A stretch of 64,000 nt of DNA, taken from assembly GCF_044647545.1 (NCBI RefSeq), contig NZ_CP172818.1, one strand, 5' to 3'. Every line of letters starts with the position of its first letter. Position 1 is the first letter of the stretch. This DNA comes from Escherichia coli. Its GTDB lineage: Bacteria > Pseudomonadota > Gammaproteobacteria > Enterobacterales > Enterobacteriaceae. Below, piece after piece: positions 1 through 61,800 of this stretch. The notes beneath the pieces were generated by a model. It was given only the letters and a program-made list of their open reading frames with translations. It ran no database searches and had not been told where the DNA came from. The position numbers and the translations under genes were made by a program.

Positions 1-2583
1 CGTAGCGACTTCGGTTGAACCGGTAAACATCACCCCGCGCACGCGATCATCACCCGTCAGCTGCGCGCCCACGGTTTCACCCCGACCGGGCAGCAATTGC
101 ACCACGCCTGGCGGTACACCCGCTTCCAGCAAAATGGCGATCCCTTGCGCGGCAATCAGCGGCGTTTGTTCTGCCGGTTTTGCCAGCACGCTGTTACCTG
201 CCGCCAGTGCGGCAGCGATCTGTCCGGTGAAAATCGCCAGCGGGAAGTTCCACGGACTGATACATACCACAGGCCCTAATGGACGGTGGGTTTCGTTAGC
301 GAAATCATCCCGCACCTGTCCGGCATAGTAGTGGAGAAAATCGACCGCTTCGCGCACTTCGGCAATGGCGTTACTGAAGGTTTTTCCGGCTTCACGCACC
401 AGAATACCAATCAGTTGCTGCATCTGGCTTTCCATTAGCACGGCAGCGCGATGCAAAATTGCCGCGCGTTCAGCCGGAGGAGTGGCAAACCAGATTGGCG
501 CGTTATTAACCGCACTTTCCAGCGCCTGTTCTACTTCACGCGGCGTGGCTTCACGCACATAGCCCACAATATCTTTCGGTTCCGCAGGGTTAATAACGGG
601 CGACATCTCACCTGCCGCTACCGGTTGTTCCAGCATTGGCAAGGACTGCCATTTTTGCAGTGCACTATTGAGCAGGGCTGAAGAGAGCGAGGCCAGACGG
701 TGTTCGTTAGCGAGATCCAGCCCTGCCGAGTTGTCGCGCCCGTGACCGTAAAGATCGCGCGGCAGGGGAATTTTCGGATGCGGTAATCCAGTTTGCCCTT
801 CCTGTTGCGCCAGTTTTTCTACAGCAGTGACTGGATCGGCGACCAGTTCATCCAGTGGCAAAGAGGTGTCGGCAATACGGTTAACAAACGAGGTGTTAGC
901 ACCGTTTTCCAGCAGGCGGCGCACCAGATACGCCAGCAGCGTTTCATGTGTACCGACCGGAGCATAAATACGACACGGACGGTTAAGTTTGCCGTCGGCA
1001 ACTTTCCCGGTGACCTGCTCATACAGTGGTTCGCCCATACCATGCAGGCACTGGAACTCGTACTGACCCGGGTAGTAGTTTTGACCCGCCAGTTGATAAA
1101 TTGCCGCCAGCGTATGGGCGTTGTGCGTCGCGAACTGCGGGTAGATTAAATTCGGCACCGCCAGCAGTTTTTTCGCACAGGCAAGATAAGAAACGTCGGT
1201 ATACACCTTGCGGGTATAAACCGGATAACCTTCAAGGCCGTCCATCTGTGCACGCTTGATTTCACTATCCCAGTACGCGCCTTTCACCAGGCGAATCATC
1301 AGACGGCGACGGCTGCGGGTGGCGAGATCAATCAGGTAATCGATCACCAACGGGCAGCGTTTTTGATAAGCCTGAATAACAAAACCGATGCCGTTCCAGC
1401 CTGCCAGTTCCGGCTCGAAACAGAGTTTTTCCAGCAGATCGAGGGAGATCTCCAGACGATCGGCCTCTTCGGCATCGATGTTAATACCAATATCGTACTG
1501 ACGCGCCAGCAGGGTGAGTGATTTCAGACGTGGGTAAAGCTCTTCCATTACCCGGTCATACTGGGCGCGGCTGTAACGCGGATGCAGCGCCGACAGCTTG
1601 ATTGAAATGCCCGGACCTTCATAGATGCCACGACCATTGGACGCTTTACCAATGGCGTGAATCGCCTGCTGATAGGAAACCATATACGCTTGTGCATCTG
1701 CGGCAGTCAGTGCGGCTTCGCCCAGCATATCGTAAGAGTAACGGAAACCTTTCTCTTCCAGTTTGCGGGCATTGGCTAACGCTTCCGCGATGGTTTCGCC
1801 CGTGACGAACTGCTCGCCCATCAGGCGCATCGCCATATCCACACCTTTGCGGATCAGCGGTTCACCGCTCTTACCGATAATGCGGTTCAGCGAGCGGGAG
1901 AGGCTGGCTTCGTTATGGGTGGAAACCAGTTTGCCGGTAAACAGCAGCCCCCAGGTGGCGGCATTAACAAACAAAGACGGGCTACGACCAATGTGTGACT
2001 GCCAGTTACCGTTGCTGATTTTGTCGCGAATTAACGCGTCCCGGGTGGCTTTGTCGGGAATACGCAACAACGCTTCTGCCAGACACATCAGCGCCACGCC
2101 TTCCTGCGATGACAGCGAAAACTCCTGCAATAACCCCTGGACCATACCTGCGCGACCACTGGCATTTTTTTGATTACGCAGTTTATCGGCCAGTTGATAC
2201 GCCAGTTTATGCGCCTGTTCAGCAACTGGTTGCGGCAGGCGGGCTTGTTCCAGCAGCATCGAAACCGCTTCGGTTTCCGGGCGGCGATAGGCCGCGGTGA
2301 TCGCGGCGCGGGAAACCGACTGGGGCAAAATTTGCTCGGCAAAGTCGAGGAAAGGCTGGTGTGGTTCCTCTGCCGGAGTCGGTGCTTCATCGCTCTCATT
2401 GGCCGCGCCAGAAAGCAGCGCAGGTAGCTCCGGAAGAGTATCGCTGTTTTCCAGTTGTTCAAGATAAGAAAAAATCGCCTGCTTAATTAACCAGTGTGGC
2501 GTGCGATCGATACGTGTCGCGGCAGACTTAATACGCTCACGCGTCGCGTCGTCCAGCTTAACCCCCATGGTGGTGGTTCCCAT
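1..2583 (-). CDS. putA: Bifunctional proline dehydrogenase / P5C dehydrogenase and transcriptional repressor PutA (5' ~861 codons; gene continues beyond window start)
   Basis: Reverse-complement translation from the ATG at 2583..2581 gives MGTTTMGVKLDDATRERI...; the window start reads ...LTGDDRVRGVMFTGSTEVAT, matching E. coli PutA. The six-frame track shows only fragments because the gene is cut by the window edge. Confidence 0.93.
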   Translation of the reverse strand, partial: MGTTTMGVKLDDATRERIKSAATRIDRTPHWLIKQAIFSYLEQLENSDTLPELPALLSGAANESDEAPTPAEEPHQPFLDFAEQILPQSVSRAAITAAYRRPETEAVSMLLEQARLPQPVAEQAHKLAYQLADKLRNQKNASGRAGMVQGLLQEFSLSSQEGVALMCLAEALLRIPDKATRDALIRDKISNGNWQSHIGRSPSLFVNAATWGLLFTGKLVSTHNEASLSRSLNRIIGKSGEPLIRKGVDMAMRLMGEQFVTGETIAEALANARKLEEKGFRYSYDMLGEAALTAADAQAYMVSYQQAIHAIGKASNGRGIYEGPGISIKLSALHPRYSRAQYDRVMEELYPRLKSLTLLARQYDIGINIDAEEADRLEISLDLLEKLCFEPELAGWNGIGFVIQAYQKRCPLVIDYLIDLATRSRRRLMIRLVKGAYWDSEIKRAQMDGLEGYPVYTRKVYTDVSYLACAKKLLAVPNLIYPQFATHNAHTLAAIYQLAGQNYYPGQYEFQCLHGMGEPLYEQVTGKVADGKLNRPCRIYAPVGTHETLLAYLVRRLLENGANTSFVNRIADTSLPLDELVADPVTAVEKLAQQEGQTGLPHPKIPLPRDLYGHGRDNSAGLDLANEHRLASLSSALLNSALQKWQSLPMLEQPVAAGEMSPVINPAEPKDIVGYVREATPREVEQALESAVNNAPIWFATPPAERAAILHRAAVLMESQMQQLIGILVREAGKTFSNAIAEVREAVDFLHYYAGQVRDDFANETHRPLGPVVCISPWNFPLAIFTGQIAAALAAGNSVLAKPAEQTPLIAAQGIAILLEAGVPPGVVQLLPGRGETVGAQLTGDDRVRGVMFTGSTEVAT

Positions 2584-8452: not shown

Positions 8453-9376
8453 GTGCGTAGCCGTTTTTCGGCATTTTATCCAAAAGCAAACTATGGCTTA
8501 CAAGGAAGCCAACCCTCTGATGTTCGTGCGCATAATCGCGCTGCCAACGGCGCGTGTGATGAATACAAACAACTCAAGGTGCTCTCCATGGGAAGACAAA
8601 AAGCAGTGATCAAAGCTCGTCGCGAGGCAAAACGTGTGCTGAGACGGGATTCGCGCAGCCATAAGCAGCGTGAAGAAGAATCGGTCACCTCGCTTGTGCA
8701 GATGAGCGGCGTAGAAGCCATTGGTATGGCCCGCGACAGTCGCGATACTTCGCCCATCCTCGCGCGAAATGAAGCGCAATTGCACTATCTGAAGGCTATT
8801 GAGAGTAAGCAGCTGATATTCGCCACGGGCGAAGCTGGGTGCGGAAAAACCTGGATCAGCGCAGCAAAAGCGGCAGAGGCCCTGATACATAAGGATGTCG
8901 ACAGGATTATCGTCACCCGTCCAGTTCTGCAAGCCGATGAAGATCTTGGCTTCTTACCTGGTGATATCGCAGAAAAGTTTGCTCCCTATTTTCGCCCGGT
9001 CTACGATGTGCTGGTCCGGCGCTTAGGGGCTTCCTTTATGCAGTACTGCCTGCGACCAGAAATAGGGAAGGTGGAAATTGCGCCGTTCGCCTATATGCGT
9101 GGACGTACCTTTGAAAATGCAGTCGTCATTCTTGACGAGGCGCAGAATGTGACTGCCGCGCAAATGAAAATGTTTTTAACCCGCCTCGGGGAGAACGTGA
9201 CGGTTATCGTCAACGGTGATATCACGCAATGCGATTTGCCTCGCGGCGTGTGCTCCGGATTAAGTGACGCGCTGGAACGTTTCGAAGAGGATGAAATGGT
9301 CGGGATCGTCCGATTCGGTAAAGAGGATTGCGTACGTTCGGCACTTTGCCAACGTACGCTACATGCATACAGTTAA
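8453..9376 (+). CDS. phoH: PhoH, phosphate-starvation-inducible ATP-binding protein (start uncertain; ATG at 8588 would give 262 aa)
   Basis: ORF track 307 aa; Walker A motif GEAGCGKT; C-terminal ...CQRTLHAYS; recognised as E. coli PhoH. Confidence 0.88.
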   Translation: MRSRFSAFYPKANYGLQGSQPSDVRAHNRAANGACDEYKQLKVLSMGRQKAVIKARREAKRVLRRDSRSHKQREEESVTSLVQMSGVEAIGMARDSRDTSPILARNEAQLHYLKAIESKQLIFATGEAGCGKTWISAAKAAEALIHKDVDRIIVTRPVLQADEDLGFLPGDIAEKFAPYFRPVYDVLVRRLGASFMQYCLRPEIGKVEIAPFAYMRGRTFENAVVILDEAQNVTAAQMKMFLTRLGENVTVIVNGDITQCDLPRGVCSGLSDALERFEEDEMVGIVRFGKEDCVRSALCQRTLHAYS

Positions 9377-23252: not shown

Positions 23253-24007
23253 GATGAAACCCCGCTTTTTTTTATTGATCGCACACCTGACAGCTGCCTC
23301 TAAAATAGAAGCACCAGAAGTACTGACAGATGTTGCACTGCTGTGTGTAGTAATAAATCAGCCCTAAATGGGTAAAATATAAAACTAATGGATTACATCT
23401 GATTTCAATCTAGCCATTACAAATCTTAAATCAAGTGTTAAACATGTAACTAAATGTAACTCGTTATATTGAAATGTTAATCTTAAGGTTTTATTAAGTT
23501 TAGAAATGATAGAAAAGTTGTACATTTGGTTTTTATTGCACAATTTTAAAAAATCATACAAATGGTGCTAACTTGCTAATAATGCATATAAAAAATATTT
23601 CGGTGTAGTCCTTTCGTCATGTAAAACGTTCTTGTTTTTTCTCTACACCTCCTTGGACAATTTTTTACTGCAAAAAGACGAGGTTTGTCACGGCTTGTGC
23701 GCAAGACATATCGCAGCAATCAGCGACGTGCAAGAAGAATGGCTGTCTGGTGATTTTTGATTGCGGAAAACGGAGATTTAAAAGAAAACAAAATATTTTT
23801 TTGCGTAGATAACAGCGTATTTACGTGGGTTTTAATACTTTGGTATGAACAAAAAAAGAAAAATACAACGCGCGGGTGAGTTATTAAAAATATTTCCGCA
23901 GACATACTTTCCATCGTAACGCAGCGTTAACAAAATACAGGTTGCGTTAACAACCAAGTTGAAATGATTTAATTTCTTAAATGTACGACCAGGTCCAGGG
24001 TGACAAC
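23253..24007. promoter_or_regulatory. csgD-csgB divergent intergenic regulatory region (csgDEFG and csgBAC promoters)
   Basis: ~750 bp AT-rich non-coding region between divergent curli operons; the only ORF in it (23720..23914) is low-complexity and judged spurious. Confidence 0.8.
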
Positions 24008-33473: not shown

Positions 33474-33575
33474 GCCTGATGCGCTACGCTTATCAGGCCT
33501 ACATCGCTCCTGCAATGTATTGATTTTGCAAGATTTTGTGGGTCGGATAAGGCGTTCACGCCACATCTGGCAAAA
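33474..33575. repeat. REP/BIME extragenic palindromic repeats
   Basis: gcctgatgcgctacgcttatcaggcctac and gtgggtcggataaggcgttcacgccacatctggca are classic REP units. Confidence 0.75.
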
Positions 33576-42667: not shown

Positions 42668-42718
42668 TAATCTCTATGCTCCGGCTGAAGGGATGTTTTT
42701 GCCGGACACAAAGGATAA

Positions 42719-47811: not shown

Positions 47812-49434
<1,623 letters not shown>

Positions 49435-49440
49435 CAATGC

Positions 49441-49467
49441 ATTCCGGCCTGCAGTGCAGGCCGGAGA
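49441..49467. terminator. Bidirectional hairpin terminator between convergent murJ and flgN
   Basis: ccggcctgcagtgcaggccgg: perfect inverted repeat. Confidence 0.6.
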
Positions 49468-49473
49468 TAATCT

Positions 49474-49890
49474 TCAGATCGAAATCTTTTTACTGCCGCG
49501 ATGGGTTGTTGAGGTCTGACCGTTCGCTCCATATAGCGTCGGTTCCTGATGCGGTTTCAACATTTCCAGCGCCTGTTGATTGCGCTCAATCTGTCCTTCC
49601 AGTAACCAGCCGTTATGTTGATTCATTTGGCGTAGTTGCTGCGTTTTCACAGTAATTTCCTGCCAGCGTTGACTAATATCAACGCTATTTGCTGAATTGG
49701 GTTCTTTCCTGCGTAACTGTTCGAGGTAATCCAGCGTCGCCAGCAGTGAGCTTTTTTGTTCTGTAATCCATTGCAACTGGCTGCCGTTGATCTGCCCCAT
49801 AGAGAGATGTTGCTGTTCTTGATCCATTACCGTTTTGAGATCGTTAAGCACAGCGGACATCTGGTCGAGGATCTCTGCAAGACGCGTCAT
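49474..49890 (-). CDS. flgN: Flagellar export chaperone FlgN
   Basis: ORF 138 aa; recognised as FlgN. Confidence 0.93.
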   Translation of the reverse strand: MTRLAEILDQMSAVLNDLKTVMDQEQQHLSMGQINGSQLQWITEQKSSLLATLDYLEQLRRKEPNSANSVDISQRWQEITVKTQQLRQMNQHNGWLLEGQIERNQQALEMLKPHQEPTLYGANGQTSTTHRGSKKISI

Positions 49891-49894
49891 ACGA

Positions 49895-50188
49895 TCAGTT
49901 ACTCTGCAAGTCTTGCTGCGCTTCGTTGATCAGCGCATCGGCAATTTTGCCGGTGTCCATTTTTAGTTCACCGTTACGAATCGCCAGTTTTAACGCTTCG
50001 ACACGTTCAAGATTGATATCACTGCTGCCGGGTTGCATCAGTTTTGCTTGCGCGTCGCTTAACGTCACACTAGTGCTGGTGGAGGCGGTTGTTTTTGCCG
50101 CCCGGGTGTTCGTTACCGGCGCGTCAGTGGTTTCGCGCGGTTGAACGGTGCTTACGGGCTTCAGAGGCGAAGTGCGATCAATACTCAT
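49895..50188 (-). CDS. flgM: Anti-sigma-28 factor FlgM
   Basis: ORF 97 aa, [22 protein letters not shown]...; recognised as FlgM. Confidence 0.94.
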
Positions 50189-50230
50189 GGTTTATTCCTC
50201 ATTGAGGGCGCTTTTATCATGTGTTGCTTA

Positions 50231-50258
50231 TTTATCGGCAAGGGATGGGTAATCTTTA
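50231..50258 (-). promoter_or_regulatory. Sigma-28 (FliA) class 3 promoter of flgMN
   Basis: Minus strand reads TAAAGATT-N11-GCCGATAA, near-perfect match to the sigma-28 consensus, ~45 bp upstream of the flgM start. Confidence 0.85.
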
Positions 50259-50263
50259 ACAGC

Positions 50264-50923
50264 TTACAGGTTTATAAGAATATTCCCATCTGCATCAACA
50301 ACGCCGCTGACCACCTGTCCCGATACCATGCGCACCCGCGCATTCTGTGCGACGGCAGCATTGTTCAGCGCCTGACCTTCTGCGTTGGCGCTAAACCCAT
50401 CACCGCTGGCGATCACGTTGACGCGTTGTCCCGCTTTTACCCGCCATGCCTGGCGAAACTGGGTTAACTGGATAGGTTGATCGGGTGATAGATCGCGCAG
50501 GCTAACGGCATCAACAAGTTGATTGATATCCAGTACCGTACGCGGTGGCAAGGTGTCCAGCCGTCCGCGTTTCAGTTTGACATTGCCAGCTTCCAGCTTT
50601 CCTCCCCGCACAATGGGCATTGCGGCAACCACATAATTTCCTGTGGCCTGCACATTAACCTGTAAATATCGTTTGTCGTTACCGCAGCGTGCCAACACAT
50701 TCACATTGCCCCACAGGCGGGAATTATTGCTCATCGAAAGCAATGGCTGCTCGCACGGCGGCAGTAGACTGGGCGCTGTACGAATAGAAACACGAACCTC
50801 ATCACTTACCCCCGCGAGCTGGGCGCTAAAAAAGGTGTGCAATTGCGATGTGAGATTGCTCGCCGTACTTAACGGACTGAACAGTATCGCGATGATCGTC
50901 ACGCTACGTTTTATTGTCAGCAT
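50264..50923 (-). CDS. flgA: Flagellar P-ring assembly chaperone FlgA
   Basis: ORF 219 aa with signal peptide. Confidence 0.93.
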   Translation of the reverse strand: MLTIKRSVTIIAILFSPLSTASNLTSQLHTFFSAQLAGVSDEVRVSIRTAPSLLPPCEQPLLSMSNNSRLWGNVNVLARCGNDKRYLQVNVQATGNYVVAAMPIVRGGKLEAGNVKLKRGRLDTLPPRTVLDINQLVDAVSLRDLSPDQPIQLTQFRQAWRVKAGQRVNVIASGDGFSANAEGQALNNAAVAQNARVRMVSGQVVSGVVDADGNILINL

Positions 50924-51077
50924 TTTCGCCCCCAGCCATTTCTACAACGTGAATTGTACCTGTCCGCAATGACCATCAACGGCATAAATAGCGACCCATT
51001 TTGCGTTTATTCCGCCGATAACGCGCGCGTAAAGGCATTTAAGCTGATGGCAGAATTTTGATACCTGCGGAGGAGAT
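50924..51077. promoter_or_regulatory. flgA/flgB divergent class 2 promoter region (expected FlhDC target)
   Basis: Divergent intergenic region between flgAMN and flgBCDEFGHIJ; FlhDC sites are inferred from known regulation, not individually resolved. Confidence 0.6.
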
Positions 51078-51494
51078 ATGCTCGATAAGCTCGACGCCGC
51101 CTTACGTTTTCAACAAGAGGCGCTCAATCTGCGCGCCCAGCGTCAGGAAGTGCTGGCAGCAAACATCGCCAATGCCGATACCCCTGGTTATCAGGCTCGC
51201 GATATCGATTTTGCCAGTGAACTTAAAAAAGTCATGCAACGTGGACGGGATGCAACCAGTGTGGTTGCTCTGACGATGACCTCAACGCAACACATTCCGG
51301 CGCAGGCGCTGACGCCTCCTACCGCAGAACTGCAATACCGTATTCCGGACCAGCCTTCGCTTGACGGTAATACCGTCGATATGGATCGCGAACGCACCCA
51401 GTTTGCCGATAACAGCCTGCAATACCAGATGAGCCTTAGCGCGTTGAGCGGGCAAATCAAAGGCATGATGAACGTTTTACAGAGCGGAAATTAA
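51078..51494 (+). CDS. flgB: Flagellar basal-body rod protein FlgB
   Basis: ORF 138 aa. Confidence 0.95.
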
Positions 51495-54614: not shown

Positions 54615-54732
54615 TTAAACGATTGATGACATTGCAATAAAAGCGCGCGGACTATTCTCTCGCCCATTTTGGGAGAGGTTAGGGTGAGGGGAAATTCGCA
54701 CCGTCGCGTGCTTCTGCTCTGCTTGTCACTAA

Positions 54733-55533
<801 letters not shown>

Positions 55534-57393: not shown

Positions 57394-58334
57394 TGATCAG
57401 CGACAGCAAACTACTGGCAAGTGCGGCCTGGGATGCACAATCGCTCAACGAACTTAAGGCGAAAGCGGGCGAAGATCCGGCGGCAAATATCCGTCCGGTG
57501 GCCCGCCAGGTGGAAGGGATGTTCGTGCAGATGATGTTGAAAAGCATGCGCGACGCTTTACCAAAAGATGGCCTGTTCAGCAGCGAGCACACTCGCCTGT
57601 ATACCAGTATGTATGACCAGCAGATTGCCCAACAGATGACGGCGGGCAAAGGTCTGGGGCTGGCAGAGATGATGGTTAAACAGATGACGCCAGAACAACC
57701 ATTGCCAGAGGAGTCCACGCCAGCAGCACCGATGAAATTCCCGCTCGAAACCGTGGTGCGTTATCAAAATCAGACGCTTTCGCAGCTGGTGCAAAAGGCC
57801 GTACCACGTAACTACGATGATTCGCTGCCGGGTGACAGTAAAGCATTCCTCGCGCAACTCTCGTTGCCCGCCCAACTGGCAAGCCAGCAAAGCGGTGTGC
57901 CACATCATTTGATCCTCGCTCAGGCGGCGCTGGAATCTGGCTGGGGACAACGGCAAATCCGCCGTGAAAACGGCGAGCCGAGCTATAACCTGTTTGGCGT
58001 CAAAGCCTCTGGCAACTGGAAAGGGCCAGTCACTGAAATCACCACGACTGAATATGAAAATGGCGAAGCGAAGAAAGTAAAAGCGAAGTTTCGGGTCTAC
58101 AGCTCGTATCTGGAAGCATTGTCGGATTACGTTGGGCTGTTAACGCGTAACCCGCGCTACGCCGCCGTGACGACCGCCGCGAGTGCGGAGCAGGGGGCGC
58201 AGGCCCTACAGGACGCGGGCTATGCCACCGATCCTCACTATGCCCGCAAACTCACCAGCATGATTCAGCAGATGAAATCGATAAGCGACAAGGTGAGCAA
58301 AACCTACAGCATGAACATTGATAATCTGTTCTGA
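57393..58334 (+). CDS. flgJ: Flagellar rod-assembly protein / peptidoglycan hydrolase FlgJ
   Basis: Track ORF 57363..58334; the [14 protein letters not shown] start overlaps the flgI stop by 1 nt and gives 313 aa. Confidence 0.93.
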   Translation: MISDSKLLASAAWDAQSLNELKAKAGEDPAANIRPVARQVEGMFVQMMLKSMRDALPKDGLFSSEHTRLYTSMYDQQIAQQMTAGKGLGLAEMMVKQMTPEQPLPEESTPAAPMKFPLETVVRYQNQTLSQLVQKAVPRNYDDSLPGDSKAFLAQLSLPAQLASQQSGVPHHLILAQAALESGWGQRQIRRENGEPSYNLFGVKASGNWKGPVTEITTTEYENGEAKKVKAKFRVYSSYLEALSDYVGLLTRNPRYAAVTTAASAEQGAQALQDAGYATDPHYARKLTSMIQQMKSISDKVSKTYSMNIDNLF

Positions 58335-58339
58335 ATAAC

Positions 58340-58366
58340 TCAAGTCCGGCGGGTCGCTGCCGATAA
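58340..58366 (+). promoter_or_regulatory. Sigma-28 class 3 promoter of flgKL
   Basis: TCAAGTCC-N11-GCCGATAA (5/8 match in the -35, perfect -10) 34 bp upstream of the flgK start. Confidence 0.7.
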
Positions 58367-58399
58367 TACTCTGTAATTGAAGGCTTATAAGGAACCTCC

Positions 58400-60043
58400 A
58401 TGTCCAGCTTGATCAATAACGCCATGAGCGGACTGAACGCGGCCCAGGCGGCGTTAAATACGGCAAGTAATAATATCTCCAGCTATAACGTTGCCGGATA
58501 TACCCGCCAAACCACTATTATGGCGCAGGCCAATAGCACGTTGGGCGCTGGCGGCTGGGTTGGCAATGGCGTCTACGTTTCTGGTGTGCAGCGTGAGTAT
58601 GATGCGTTTATTACCAACCAGTTACGTGCTGCGCAGACGCAAAGTAGCGGCCTGACTGCCCGCTATGAGCAGATGTCGAAAATCGACAATATGCTCTCCA
58701 CCAGTACCTCTTCGCTGGCAACACAGATGCAGGATTTCTTCACCAGCCTGCAAACGCTGGTGAGTAACGCGGAAGACCCGGCAGCGCGCCAGGCGCTGAT
58801 TGGGAAATCAGAAGGGTTGGTGAATCAGTTTAAAACCACCGATCAATATCTGCGCGACCAGGACAAACAGGTCAATATCGCGATAGGTGCCAGCGTTGAT
58901 CAGATCAACAATTACGCTAAACAAATCGCCAGCCTGAACGATCAAATCTCGCGTCTGACAGGCGTGGGGGCAGGGGCGTCACCTAACAATCTGCTGGATC
59001 AACGCGATCAACTGGTGAGTGAATTAAACCAGATTGTTGGCGTAGAAGTTAGCGTTCAGGATGGTGGCACTTATAACATCACGATGGCCAATGGCTACTC
59101 ACTGGTTCAGGGAAGTACGGCGCGGCAGCTGGCGGCAGTTCCTTCCAGCGCCGACCCTTCTCGTACGACTGTCGCTTATATTGATGGGACGGCAGGCAAT
59201 ATTGAGATCCCGGAGAAATTGCTGAATACCGGGTCGCTGGGCGGCATTCTGACATTCCGTTCTCAGGATCTGGACCAGACGCGTAATACGCTTGGACAAC
59301 TGGCGCTGGCATTTGCCGAGGCTTTCAACACCCAACACAAAGCCGGATTTGATGCTAACGGCGATGCCGGTGAAGATTTCTTTGCTATCGGTAAGCCCGC
59401 GGTTCTGCAAAACACGAAAAACAAAGGTGACGTTGCGATCGGTGCAACGGTAACTGATGCCTCCGCGGTACTGGCGACAGATTACAAAATCTCGTTCGAT
59501 AATAATCAGTGGCAGGTCACCCGCCTTGCCAGCAATACCACTTTTACGGTGACGCCGGATGCCAACGGTAAAGTGGCATTTGATGGTCTGGAGTTGACGT
59601 TTACAGGAACGCCTGCCGTTAACGACAGCTTCACGTTGAAACCGGTAAGTGACGCCATCGTCAACATGGATGTATTAATCACTGACGAAGCGAAAATCGC
59701 CATGGCGAGCGCAGAAGATGCGGGTGATAGCGACAACCGCAACGGTCAGGCCCTGCTGGATCTGCAAAGCAACAGTAAAACGGTGGGCGGTGCGAAATCC
59801 TTTAACGACGCTTATGCCTCGTTAGTGAGTGATATCGGTAATAAAACCGCGACGTTGAAAACCAGTAGCGCCACGCAAGGTAATGTGGTGACGCAGCTTT
59901 CCAATCAGCAGCAGTCGATTTCCGGTGTCAATCTCGATGAGGAGTACGGAAATCTGCAACGTTTTCAGCAGTATTACCTCGCGAATGCGCAGGTTCTGCA
60001 GACGGCAAACGCGATTTTTGATGCGCTGATTAACATTCGCTAA
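58400..60043 (+). CDS. flgK: Flagellar hook-associated protein 1 FlgK
   Basis: ORF 547 aa. Confidence 0.95.
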   Translation: MSSLINNAMSGLNAAQAALNTASNNISSYNVAGYTRQTTIMAQANSTLGAGGWVGNGVYVSGVQREYDAFITNQLRAAQTQSSGLTARYEQMSKIDNMLSTSTSSLATQMQDFFTSLQTLVSNAEDPAARQALIGKSEGLVNQFKTTDQYLRDQDKQVNIAIGASVDQINNYAKQIASLNDQISRLTGVGAGASPNNLLDQRDQLVSELNQIVGVEVSVQDGGTYNITMANGYSLVQGSTARQLAAVPSSADPSRTTVAYIDGTAGNIEIPEKLLNTGSLGGILTFRSQDLDQTRNTLGQLALAFAEAFNTQHKAGFDANGDAGEDFFAIGKPAVLQNTKNKGDVAIGATVTDASAVLATDYKISFDNNQWQVTRLASNTTFTVTPDANGKVAFDGLELTFTGTPAVNDSFTLKPVSDAIVNMDVLITDEAKIAMASAEDAGDSDNRNGQALLDLQSNSKTVGGAKSFNDAYASLVSDIGNKTATLKTSSATQGNVVTQLSNQQQSISGVNLDEEYGNLQRFQQYYLANAQVLQTANAIFDALINIR

Positions 60044-60054
60044 GGGGAGATAAA

Positions 60055-61008
60055 ATGCGTTTCAGTACCCAGATGATGTACCAGCAAAACATGCGCGGCA
60101 TCACCAATTCTCAGGCAGAATGGATGAAGTACGGTGAACAGATGTCGACGGGTAAGCGAGTCGTTAACCCTTCAGATGATCCCATTGCTGCATCACAAGC
60201 TGTTGTTCTCTCCCAGGCACAGGCGCAAAACAGCCAGTACACGCTGGCGCGTACTTTCGCCACTCAAAAAGTGTCACTGGAAGAGAGTGTACTTAGCCAG
60301 GTCACCACCGCTATCCAGAATGCTCAGGAAAAAATTGTCTACGCCAGCAATGGCACCTTGAGTGACGATGACCGGGCCTCGCTGGCTACGGATATTCAGG
60401 GGCTTCGTGACCAGTTGCTGAATCTGGCGAACACCACTGACGGTAACGGGCGCTACATTTTTGCCGGTTATAAAACAGAATCCGCACCGTTTAGCGAGGA
60501 GGATGGCAAATACGAAGGCGGAGCAGAAAGTATTAAACAACAGGTCGATGCTTCGCGTTCGATGGTGATAGGGCACACGGGTGACAAAATTTTCGACAGT
60601 ATTACCAGCAACGCGGTAGCGGAACCAGACGGTAGCGCTTCTGAAACCAATCTTTTTGCCATGCTGGATAGCGCCATCGCAGCCCTGAAAACGCCGGTCG
60701 CGGATAGCGAAGCGGATAAAGAAACCGCCGCTGCGGCACTGGATAAAACCAACCGCGGACTGAAAAACTCGCTGAACAATGTGCTGACTGTTCGCGCGGA
60801 ATTAGGCACGCAGCTGAACGAACTGGAGTCGCTGGATTCATTAGGTAGCGATCGCGCTTTAGGGCAAACGCAGCAGATGAGCGATCTGGTTGATGTGGAC
60901 TGGAATGCAACTATTTCATCTTACATCATGCAGCAAACGGCATTGCAGGCGTCGTATAAAGCATTTACCGATATGCAGGGATTGTCGCTCTTCCAGCTCA
61001 ACAAATAA
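60055..61008 (+). CDS. flgL: Flagellar hook-associated protein 3 FlgL
   Basis: ORF 317 aa. Confidence 0.95.
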   Translation: MRFSTQMMYQQNMRGITNSQAEWMKYGEQMSTGKRVVNPSDDPIAASQAVVLSQAQAQNSQYTLARTFATQKVSLEESVLSQVTTAIQNAQEKIVYASNGTLSDDDRASLATDIQGLRDQLLNLANTTDGNGRYIFAGYKTESAPFSEEDGKYEGGAESIKQQVDASRSMVIGHTGDKIFDSITSNAVAEPDGSASETNLFAMLDSAIAALKTPVADSEADKETAAAALDKTNRGLKNSLNNVLTVRAELGTQLNELESLDSLGSDRALGQTQQMSDLVDVDWNATISSYIMQQTALQASYKAFTDMQGLSLFQLNK

Positions 61009-61090
61009 TTTCGCTTTAAAACATATCATGAAACTGGGTATGTTTTGTCTGCCTGCTCTGGGATCGCCGGGGCGGGCATTTTTTTGCCTA

Positions 61091-61800
<710 letters not shown>

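Follow-up and report, generated by a model that had tools for sequence, protein, structure and literature searches.

Sigma-28 promoters of the flgMN and flgKL operons in an Escherichia coli flagellar gene cluster

The flg cluster and its two promoter-bearing gaps

The window, the whole stretch of 64,000 nucleotides that was analysed, is a piece of the E. coli chromosome. One strand carries murJ, flgN, flgM, and flgA; the opposite strand carries flgBCDEFGHIJKL, after which comes rne. Gene order and names were taken from the RefSeq annotation of a 100%-identical strain. Positions 49400–51200 are 100% identical to several complete genomes, and a match to this segment is present in 5425 of 5426 complete E. 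coli genomes. The gaps between flgA and flgM and between flgJ and flgK each hold a sigma-28 (FliA) promoter element, and the coordinates of all features are collected in Table 1.

The 75-bp flgA–flgM gap holds the flgM element on the minus strand. Its −35 octamer begins 5 nt beyond the flgA stop codon (50266–50264), and its −10 octamer, followed directly by an A at 50231, ends 43 nt ahead of the flgM ATG at 50188 on the gene strand. The Shine-Dalgarno sequence of flgM, GAGGA, lies at 50200–50196. A first-pass annotation of this DNA had described a minus-strand pair of octamers separated by 11 nucleotides and had called the pair near-consensus. The element reads exactly as claimed, to the base, and with 15 of 16 positions matching TAAAGTTT-N11-GCCGATAA over the 11-bp spacer, the wording is apt.

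The flgK element lies on the plus strand of the 65-bp flgJ–flgK gap. The flgJ stop codon occupies 58332–58334, the −35 octamer begins 5 nt beyond it, and the −10 octamer ends 33 nt ahead of the flgK ATG (58400) on the gene strand. This site matches the consensus at 13 of 16 positions, again with an 11-bp spacer, and all three mismatches fall in the −35 octamer. The perfect −10 octamer that the first-pass annotation had placed at 58,359–58,366 is found exactly there, on the plus strand.

Downstream of flgL, a terminator scan locates the operon terminator within FlgO, as a stem at 61050–61078 followed by a T-run. FlgO differs from the K-12 annotation b4826 by one SNP in the window. It has been described as an Hfq-bound sRNA with few targets that is processed from the flgL 3′ UTR and is a product of sigma-28-dependent flgKL transcription (PMC10578931), so its level should follow the flgK promoter. 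An Rfam scan gave no match in the two promoter regions or their leaders. Elsewhere in the window, the scan gave hits that exceed the gathering score, namely the Ysr251 antisense RNA near phoH/pgaD (9178–9371), ES056 upstream of csgD (23309–23400), ES036 (CssrF; 33495–33537), and the PyrC leader (42668–42717); these have no bearing on the two promoters.

The window is collinear with NZ_CP033850.1, with few SNPs, from 38400 to ~61088. Base-for-base collinearity is lost upstream of ~38400 (window 1–38400), so that borrowed gene coordinates are shifted there. Beyond flgL, a segment of ~570 nt (61230–61800) is homopolymer-rich and of low complexity, containing T runs longer than 20, A runs longer than 15, and G runs of 16. 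The equivalent segment of NZ_CP033850.1 encodes an intact GNAT toxin/DUF1778 antitoxin pair between flgL and rne, a pair that K-12 lacks at this place. The flanks of the two segments are identical and the middle aligns at only ~50%, and the segment has the look of degraded base-calling or assembly and not of a biological feature.

Table 1. Genes, promoter elements, and transcript features at the flgMN and flgKL promoters, in window coordinates.
Feature	Position	Strand	Remarks
flgN	49474–49890	−	FlgK/FlgL chaperone; with flgM forms the operon 49474–50188 driven by the flgM promoter
flgM	49895–50188	−	anti-sigma-28
flgM 5′ leader, inferred	50189–50224	−	36 nt; +1 = A at 50224
flgM promoter −10 octamer, GCCGATAA	50232–50239	−	perfect consensus
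flgM promoter spacer, ACCCATCCCTT	50240–50250	−	11 bp
flgM class 3 (sigma-28) promoter −35 octamer, TAAAGATT	50251–50258	−	1 mismatch to TAAAGTTT
flgA	50264–50923	−	first gene of the class 2 flgAMN transcript, which reads through the flgM promoter (annotation; PMC4183435)
flgK class 3 promoter −35 octamer, TCAAGTCC	58340–58347	+	3 mismatches to consensus
flgK promoter spacer, GGCGGGTCGCT	58348–58358	+	11 bp
flgK promoter −10 octamer, GCCGATAA	58359–58366	+	perfect consensus
flgK transcription start interval, predicted	58372–58376	+	18–22 bp motif-centre-to-TSS rule; leader 24–28 nt
flgK	58400–60043	+	hook-filament junction protein
flgL	60055–61008	+	hook-filament junction protein
FlgO sRNA	61008–61085	+	flgL 3′ UTR; ends in the operon terminator (K-12 annotation b4826; PMC10578931)

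Match strength and conservation

The strength of the two matches was measured against the whole window. The sigma-28 consensus, TAAAGTTT-N11-GCCGATAA as given in PMC2859248, was scanned across the 64 kb as TAAAGTTT-N10–12-GCCGATAA. The flgM site is the sole match with one mismatch, and the flgK site, with three, is level with a site inside putA at 2183–2209. Position weight matrices (PWMs) were then built from the 52 FliA ChIP-seq motifs of Fitzgerald et al. 2014 (PMC4183435, Table 2) with flgM and flgK left out, one from 23 strong sites and one from 50 sites, and 100 random 64-kb sequences served as the null. The flgM site ranks first in the window at 27.4 bits (23 sites) and 24.0 bits (50 sites), above the maximum over all 100 random sequences (22.4/20.2 bits), and in this leave-out scoring tar alone of the 52 ChIP-bound sites exceeds it. 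In the window, the flgK site takes second place at 16.4/18.5 bits against a mean best random score of 14.8 ± 2.0, which places it ~1–2 sd above the best chance match in 64 kb. The PWM scan that had been proposed as a check thus bears out the flgM site fully and leaves the flgK site as the second-ranked hit: the former stands on sequence alone, and the latter is only marginal and not clearly beyond chance on that basis. It is position and conservation that lift both sites far above chance.

The bare −10 octamer GCCGATAA occurs 13 times in the window against 2.4 expected from dinucleotide shuffles, and an excess of this size might be read as many sigma-28 sites. That reading was rejected, because codon usage explains the 8 of 13 copies that lie in long ORFs, where they read GCC-GAT-AAx (Ala-Asp-Lys/Asn) or, in antisense, ATC-GGC (Ile-Gly).

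The putA-internal site (2182–2209, minus strand) reads TAAACTGG-N11-GCCGATAA on the sense strand and scores 15.7/17.4 bits, about the level of flgK. The K-12 counterpart reads CAAACTGG, is missing the first T, which is important, and shows no FliA ChIP peak. Judged from its sequence, this strain might carry a weak intragenic FliA promoter in putA that is absent from K-12.

Conservation was surveyed by an FlgG-anchored scan with one genome per species, which yielded 80 Enterobacterales loci from Escherichia and Citrobacter to Yersinia, Serratia, Erwinia, Pantoea, Xenorhabdus, and Photorhabdus. Within these loci flgM and flgK were located by tblastn and their upstream regions were searched. In 85% of loci for flgM and 86% for flgK, the 130 nt ahead of the start contain a motif that has an 11-bp spacer and no more than 3 mismatches. 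At the same threshold, random segments of the same loci gave 0.06–0.6% and shuffled upstream regions ~0.1%. When the search was widened to 600 nt, a sigma-28 motif with this spacer length was found upstream of flgM in 73 of 73 loci and upstream of flgK in 77 of 77, with perfect consensus sites in Yersinia.

Alignments anchored on the motif show octamers at 1.6–1.8 bits per column and spacers at 0.2–0.3 bits (~0.3 for flgM, ~0.2 for flgK). Such anchoring biases the alignment towards the motif columns, hence the importance of the random-segment control. For flgM, the −35 TAAAG is invariant across 64 of 64 distinct Enterobacterales sequences and the −10 CCGAT is nearly so across the same 64. For flgK, the −35 carries TCAAG in 66 of 67 distinct sequences, reading TCAAGTTT in most genera, and the −10 CCGATA is invariant (67 of 67).

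The same pattern holds at close range. Among the Escherichia gaps compared (the window, K-12, a divergent E. coli, E. albertii, and another Escherichia), all substitutions fall outside the octamers. The flgA–flgM and flgJ–flgK gaps were found in 5425 and 5424, respectively, of 5426 complete E. coli genomes. At 50247, in the flgM spacer, the window has A, a minority allele, and K-12 has G; the window allele is shared exactly by only 72 of the 5425 genomes. For the flgJ–flgK gap, 4931 of the 5424 genomes show 99% identity or more. Conservation of flagellar FliA promoters had been remarked on earlier (bioRxiv 10.1101/188474). The present survey of more than 70 species extends it, with both promoters universal in flagellated Enterobacterales, and adds the conservation of the TCAAG variant at flgK.

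Occupancy, transcription starts, and rival explanations

Published work on K-12 supplies direct evidence of binding. FliA ChIP-seq gives fold-above-threshold (FAT) values of 48 for flgMN, with the motif TAAAGATTACCCGTCCCTTGCCGATAAA, and 47 for flgKL, with a motif identical to that of the window (PMC4183435). The independently determined sigma-28 ChIP-chip regions SigF_9 (1129111–1129610) and SigF_10 (1137178–1137740) span both motifs (PMC3923258 supplement), and genomic SELEX with sigma-28 holoenzyme alone gives 15.0 for flgM and 27.2 for flgK (PMC5493296). The first-pass annotation had ranked the flgK promoter as the weaker one. This is right for the consensus match, owing to the three −35 mismatches, and does not extend to occupancy, which is equal by ChIP-seq (47 versus 48) and higher for flgK by SELEX (27.2 versus 15.0). 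The −35 bases reported to be important are T-32 and A-30 (PMC2859248), and the C of flgK lies at another position. CRP was found to bind at neither promoter (PMC2859248).

Dependence on fliA is documented as well. Arrays of a fliA deletion show flgM down 6.9-fold, flgN 4.6-fold, flgK 5.5-fold, and flgL 4.9-fold, and FliA induction raises all four (PMC1935009). Overexpression of fliA in an flhD mutant restores expression of flgM and flgK (PMC4183435). In exponential LB cultures, the deletion lowers flgM RNA from 451 to 318 and flgK RNA from 318 to 138, neither change being significant (PMC4183435). Read-through from flgJ into flgK has been seen by RT-PCR (PMC4183435), and the modest RNA change in the deletion indicates that class 2 read-through can dominate.

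For flgM, a start site can be derived from published constructs. Romilly et al. joined gfp after flgM nucleotide +105, which corresponds to codon 23 (PMC7549644); the leader is therefore 36 nt long and +1 is the A at 50224, 8 nt past the octamer. The first-pass annotation had expected published starts ~7–10 nt past the −10 elements, and the flgM start implied by these constructs lies within that range. Well-characterised flagellar FliA promoters have dRNA-seq starts 18–22 bp from the motif centre, and 38 of 52 FliA sites have a start at 18–23 bp (bioRxiv 10.1101/188474, Fitzgerald et al.). The 18–22 bp rule predicts a flgM start at 50223–50227, an interval that includes 50224. The list of Cho et al. 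2014, from a strain and cultures with essentially no flagellar transcription start sites (PMC3923258 supplement), has none at the expected sigma-28 start of flgM, and the Cappable-seq and SMRT-Cappable-seq supplements have no rows at the flgM or flgK promoter coordinates. FliA occupancy, fliA dependence, and the flgM +1 are known from orthologous K-12 sequence, by analogy with which both promoters would be active in this strain.

The most radical alternative is that both sites are chance matches devoid of promoter function and that expression of flgMN and flgKL comes entirely from the class 2 promoters of flgA and flgB, by read-through. The marginal flgK score in a 64-kb search, the like score of the intragenic putA site, the abundance of GCCGATAA in coding sequence, and the small RNA effect of fliA deletion in one condition (PMC4183435) all lean that way, and the flgK PWM score by itself is insufficient to reject chance. 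Against this stand the retention of the motif with free spacers in all 73 flgM and 77 flgK loci, occupancy in K-12 by ChIP-seq, ChIP-chip, and SELEX, and the expression restored by fliA overexpression without FlhDC (PMC4183435). Chance occurrence is rejected by conservation and published occupancy, and we give this alternative practically no credence.

A different possibility is that a sigma-70 promoter overlaps the flgM site and accounts for an appreciable part of flgMN transcription. A sigma-70-assigned start at NC_000913.2 1129417, equivalent to minus-strand position 50254 in the window, appears in the list of Cho et al. 2014 (PMC3923258 supplement); the sequence upstream of it ends in CTGTAAGCTGTTAAAG, and a possible −10, TAAGCT, lies at 50266–50261. 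This base is the G in the TAAAG of the flgM −35 element itself. The start is backed by only 21 reads, its 5′ end could just as well have arisen by processing of flgAMN read-through RNA, and no mention of such a promoter was found in the flagellar literature examined. Consensus scanning for sigma-70 predicted no promoter on the relevant strand of either the flgA–flgM or the flgJ–flgK gap. A substantial sigma-70 contribution is accordingly very improbable, and the 50254 end is regarded as a minor or processed one.

Both sites are almost certainly E. coli class 3 promoters that depend on FliA (sigma-28), namely PflgM and PflgK. The first-pass reading of them as the sigma-28 promoters of flgMN and flgKL agrees with the K-12 ChIP-seq motifs, which are identical for flgK and one spacer base off for flgM, and with the conservation across Enterobacterales. 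Its appeal to the class 3 flagellar hierarchy needs a qualification: the promoters are sigma-28 promoters, and the operons are not purely class 3 but dual class 2/3 (PMC4183435), since transcription from the FlhDC-dependent flgA and flgB promoters also runs through them. Position, conservation, and published data settle the identity of both sites. The promoters were already known from the primary literature and genome-wide maps, and there is nothing new in them. The main value of the exercise is as a positive control for the scan, in which two textbook promoters were located to the base without tools.

Proposed function and relation to known promoters

The working of the two promoters follows the flagellar hierarchy as established (PMC4183435, introduction). 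Early in assembly, FlhDC and sigma-70 transcribe flgAMN and flgB–L as read-through messages, and FlgM made from the former keeps FliA inactive. Once the hook-basal body is complete, FlgM is exported, leaving free FliA to join core RNA polymerase. The holoenzyme would then recognise the TAAAG or TCAAG of the −35 and the GCCGATAA of the −10 over an 11-bp spacer and start 5–9 nt past the octamer, probably at A50224 for flgM and at a predicted position of about 58372–58376 for flgK. The outcome would be late, FlhDC-independent synthesis of FlgM, acting as negative feedback on FliA, together with FlgN, FlgK, FlgL, and the FlgO sRNA cut from the flgL 3′ UTR. The promoters thereby form the feedback node of the flagellar cascade, at which FliA transcribes its own anti-sigma factor, and make possible an FlhDC-independent resupply of the hook-filament junction proteins and FlgO.

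The −35 octamers differ in a consistent manner. Position 2 is C in flgK (66 of 67 sequences) and A in flgM (64 of 64), and position 6 of flgM is mostly A. That these bases are selected rather than tolerated is a tentative and rather unlikely proposal. If it were true, each promoter might be adjusted to its own affinity for FliA or to its own turn in the order of class 3 firing. Another version is that the non-consensus bases could also serve as a signal carried by the class 2 read-through RNA, a proposal that arises because both −35 elements begin 5 nt past the upstream stop codon.

Two other places in the cluster bear some resemblance to sigma-28 sites or have been linked to sigma-28. A third perfect GCCGATAA lies at 51014–51021 on the plus strand, in the divergent flgA–flgB region, 56 nt upstream of flgB. 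The class 2, FlhDC-dependent flgB promoter shares the CGATAA core of its −10 with sigma-28 promoters and is without a TAAAG −35, being preceded instead by the conserved block AATAGCGACGCATTTTGCGTTTATTCC. This block followed by GnCGATAA is conserved 55–57 nt before flgB in 77 loci, with octamer positions 1–2 varying between genera, and FliA ChIP-seq shows no peak at the 51014 octamer (PMC4183435). A third sigma-28 promoter at this position was rejected, since it has neither a −35 nor a ChIP peak and is conserved in the manner of an FlhDC box plus a class 2 −10.

The flgF–flgG gap (54615–54750) measures 136 bp in the window versus 171 bp in K-12; a REP-like palindrome is present in the K-12 gap and absent from that of the window. 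Sigma-28 SELEX gives a peak in the K-12 gap (PMC5493296). A sigma-28 site beneath this peak was rejected, no sigma-28-like motif being found in the gap of either the window or K-12.

The closest known counterparts of the two promoters are those of K-12. The K-12 flgM class 3 promoter (FliA motif centre NC_000913.2 1129409, Fitzgerald et al. 2014) has both octamers identical to those of the window, the same 11-bp spacer length, and the same placement, 5 nt past the flgA stop codon and 43 nt ahead of the flgM ATG. The flgA–flgM gaps are 99% identical, and the promoters differ by one spacer substitution, G in K-12 and A in the window; given that spacer sequence varies between species, no functional change is expected from the A allele. 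The K-12 flgK promoter (motif centre 1137556, Fitzgerald et al. 2014) has a 28-nt motif, TCAAGTCCGGCGGGTCGCTGCCGATAAT, identical to that of the window, with no detectable difference in the promoter itself. Salmonella has counterparts of both: its flgM promoter has served in mutagenesis of class 3 promoters (Wozniak & Hughes 2008, as cited in PMC2859248), and its flgK promoter is credited to Kutsukake & Ide 1995 as cited in Fitzgerald et al. 2014.

Class 3 FliA promoters that are the single promoter of their genes, such as those of tar, tsr, and fliC, share the TAAAGTTT-N11-GCCGATAA architecture of flgM and flgK. The tar, tsr, and fliC promoters are almost wholly dependent on FliA, with hundreds-fold drops in a fliA mutant (PMC4183435). 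Unlike them, the flgM and flgK promoters lie inside class 2 transcription units, which keep most of their RNA without FliA (PMC4183435).
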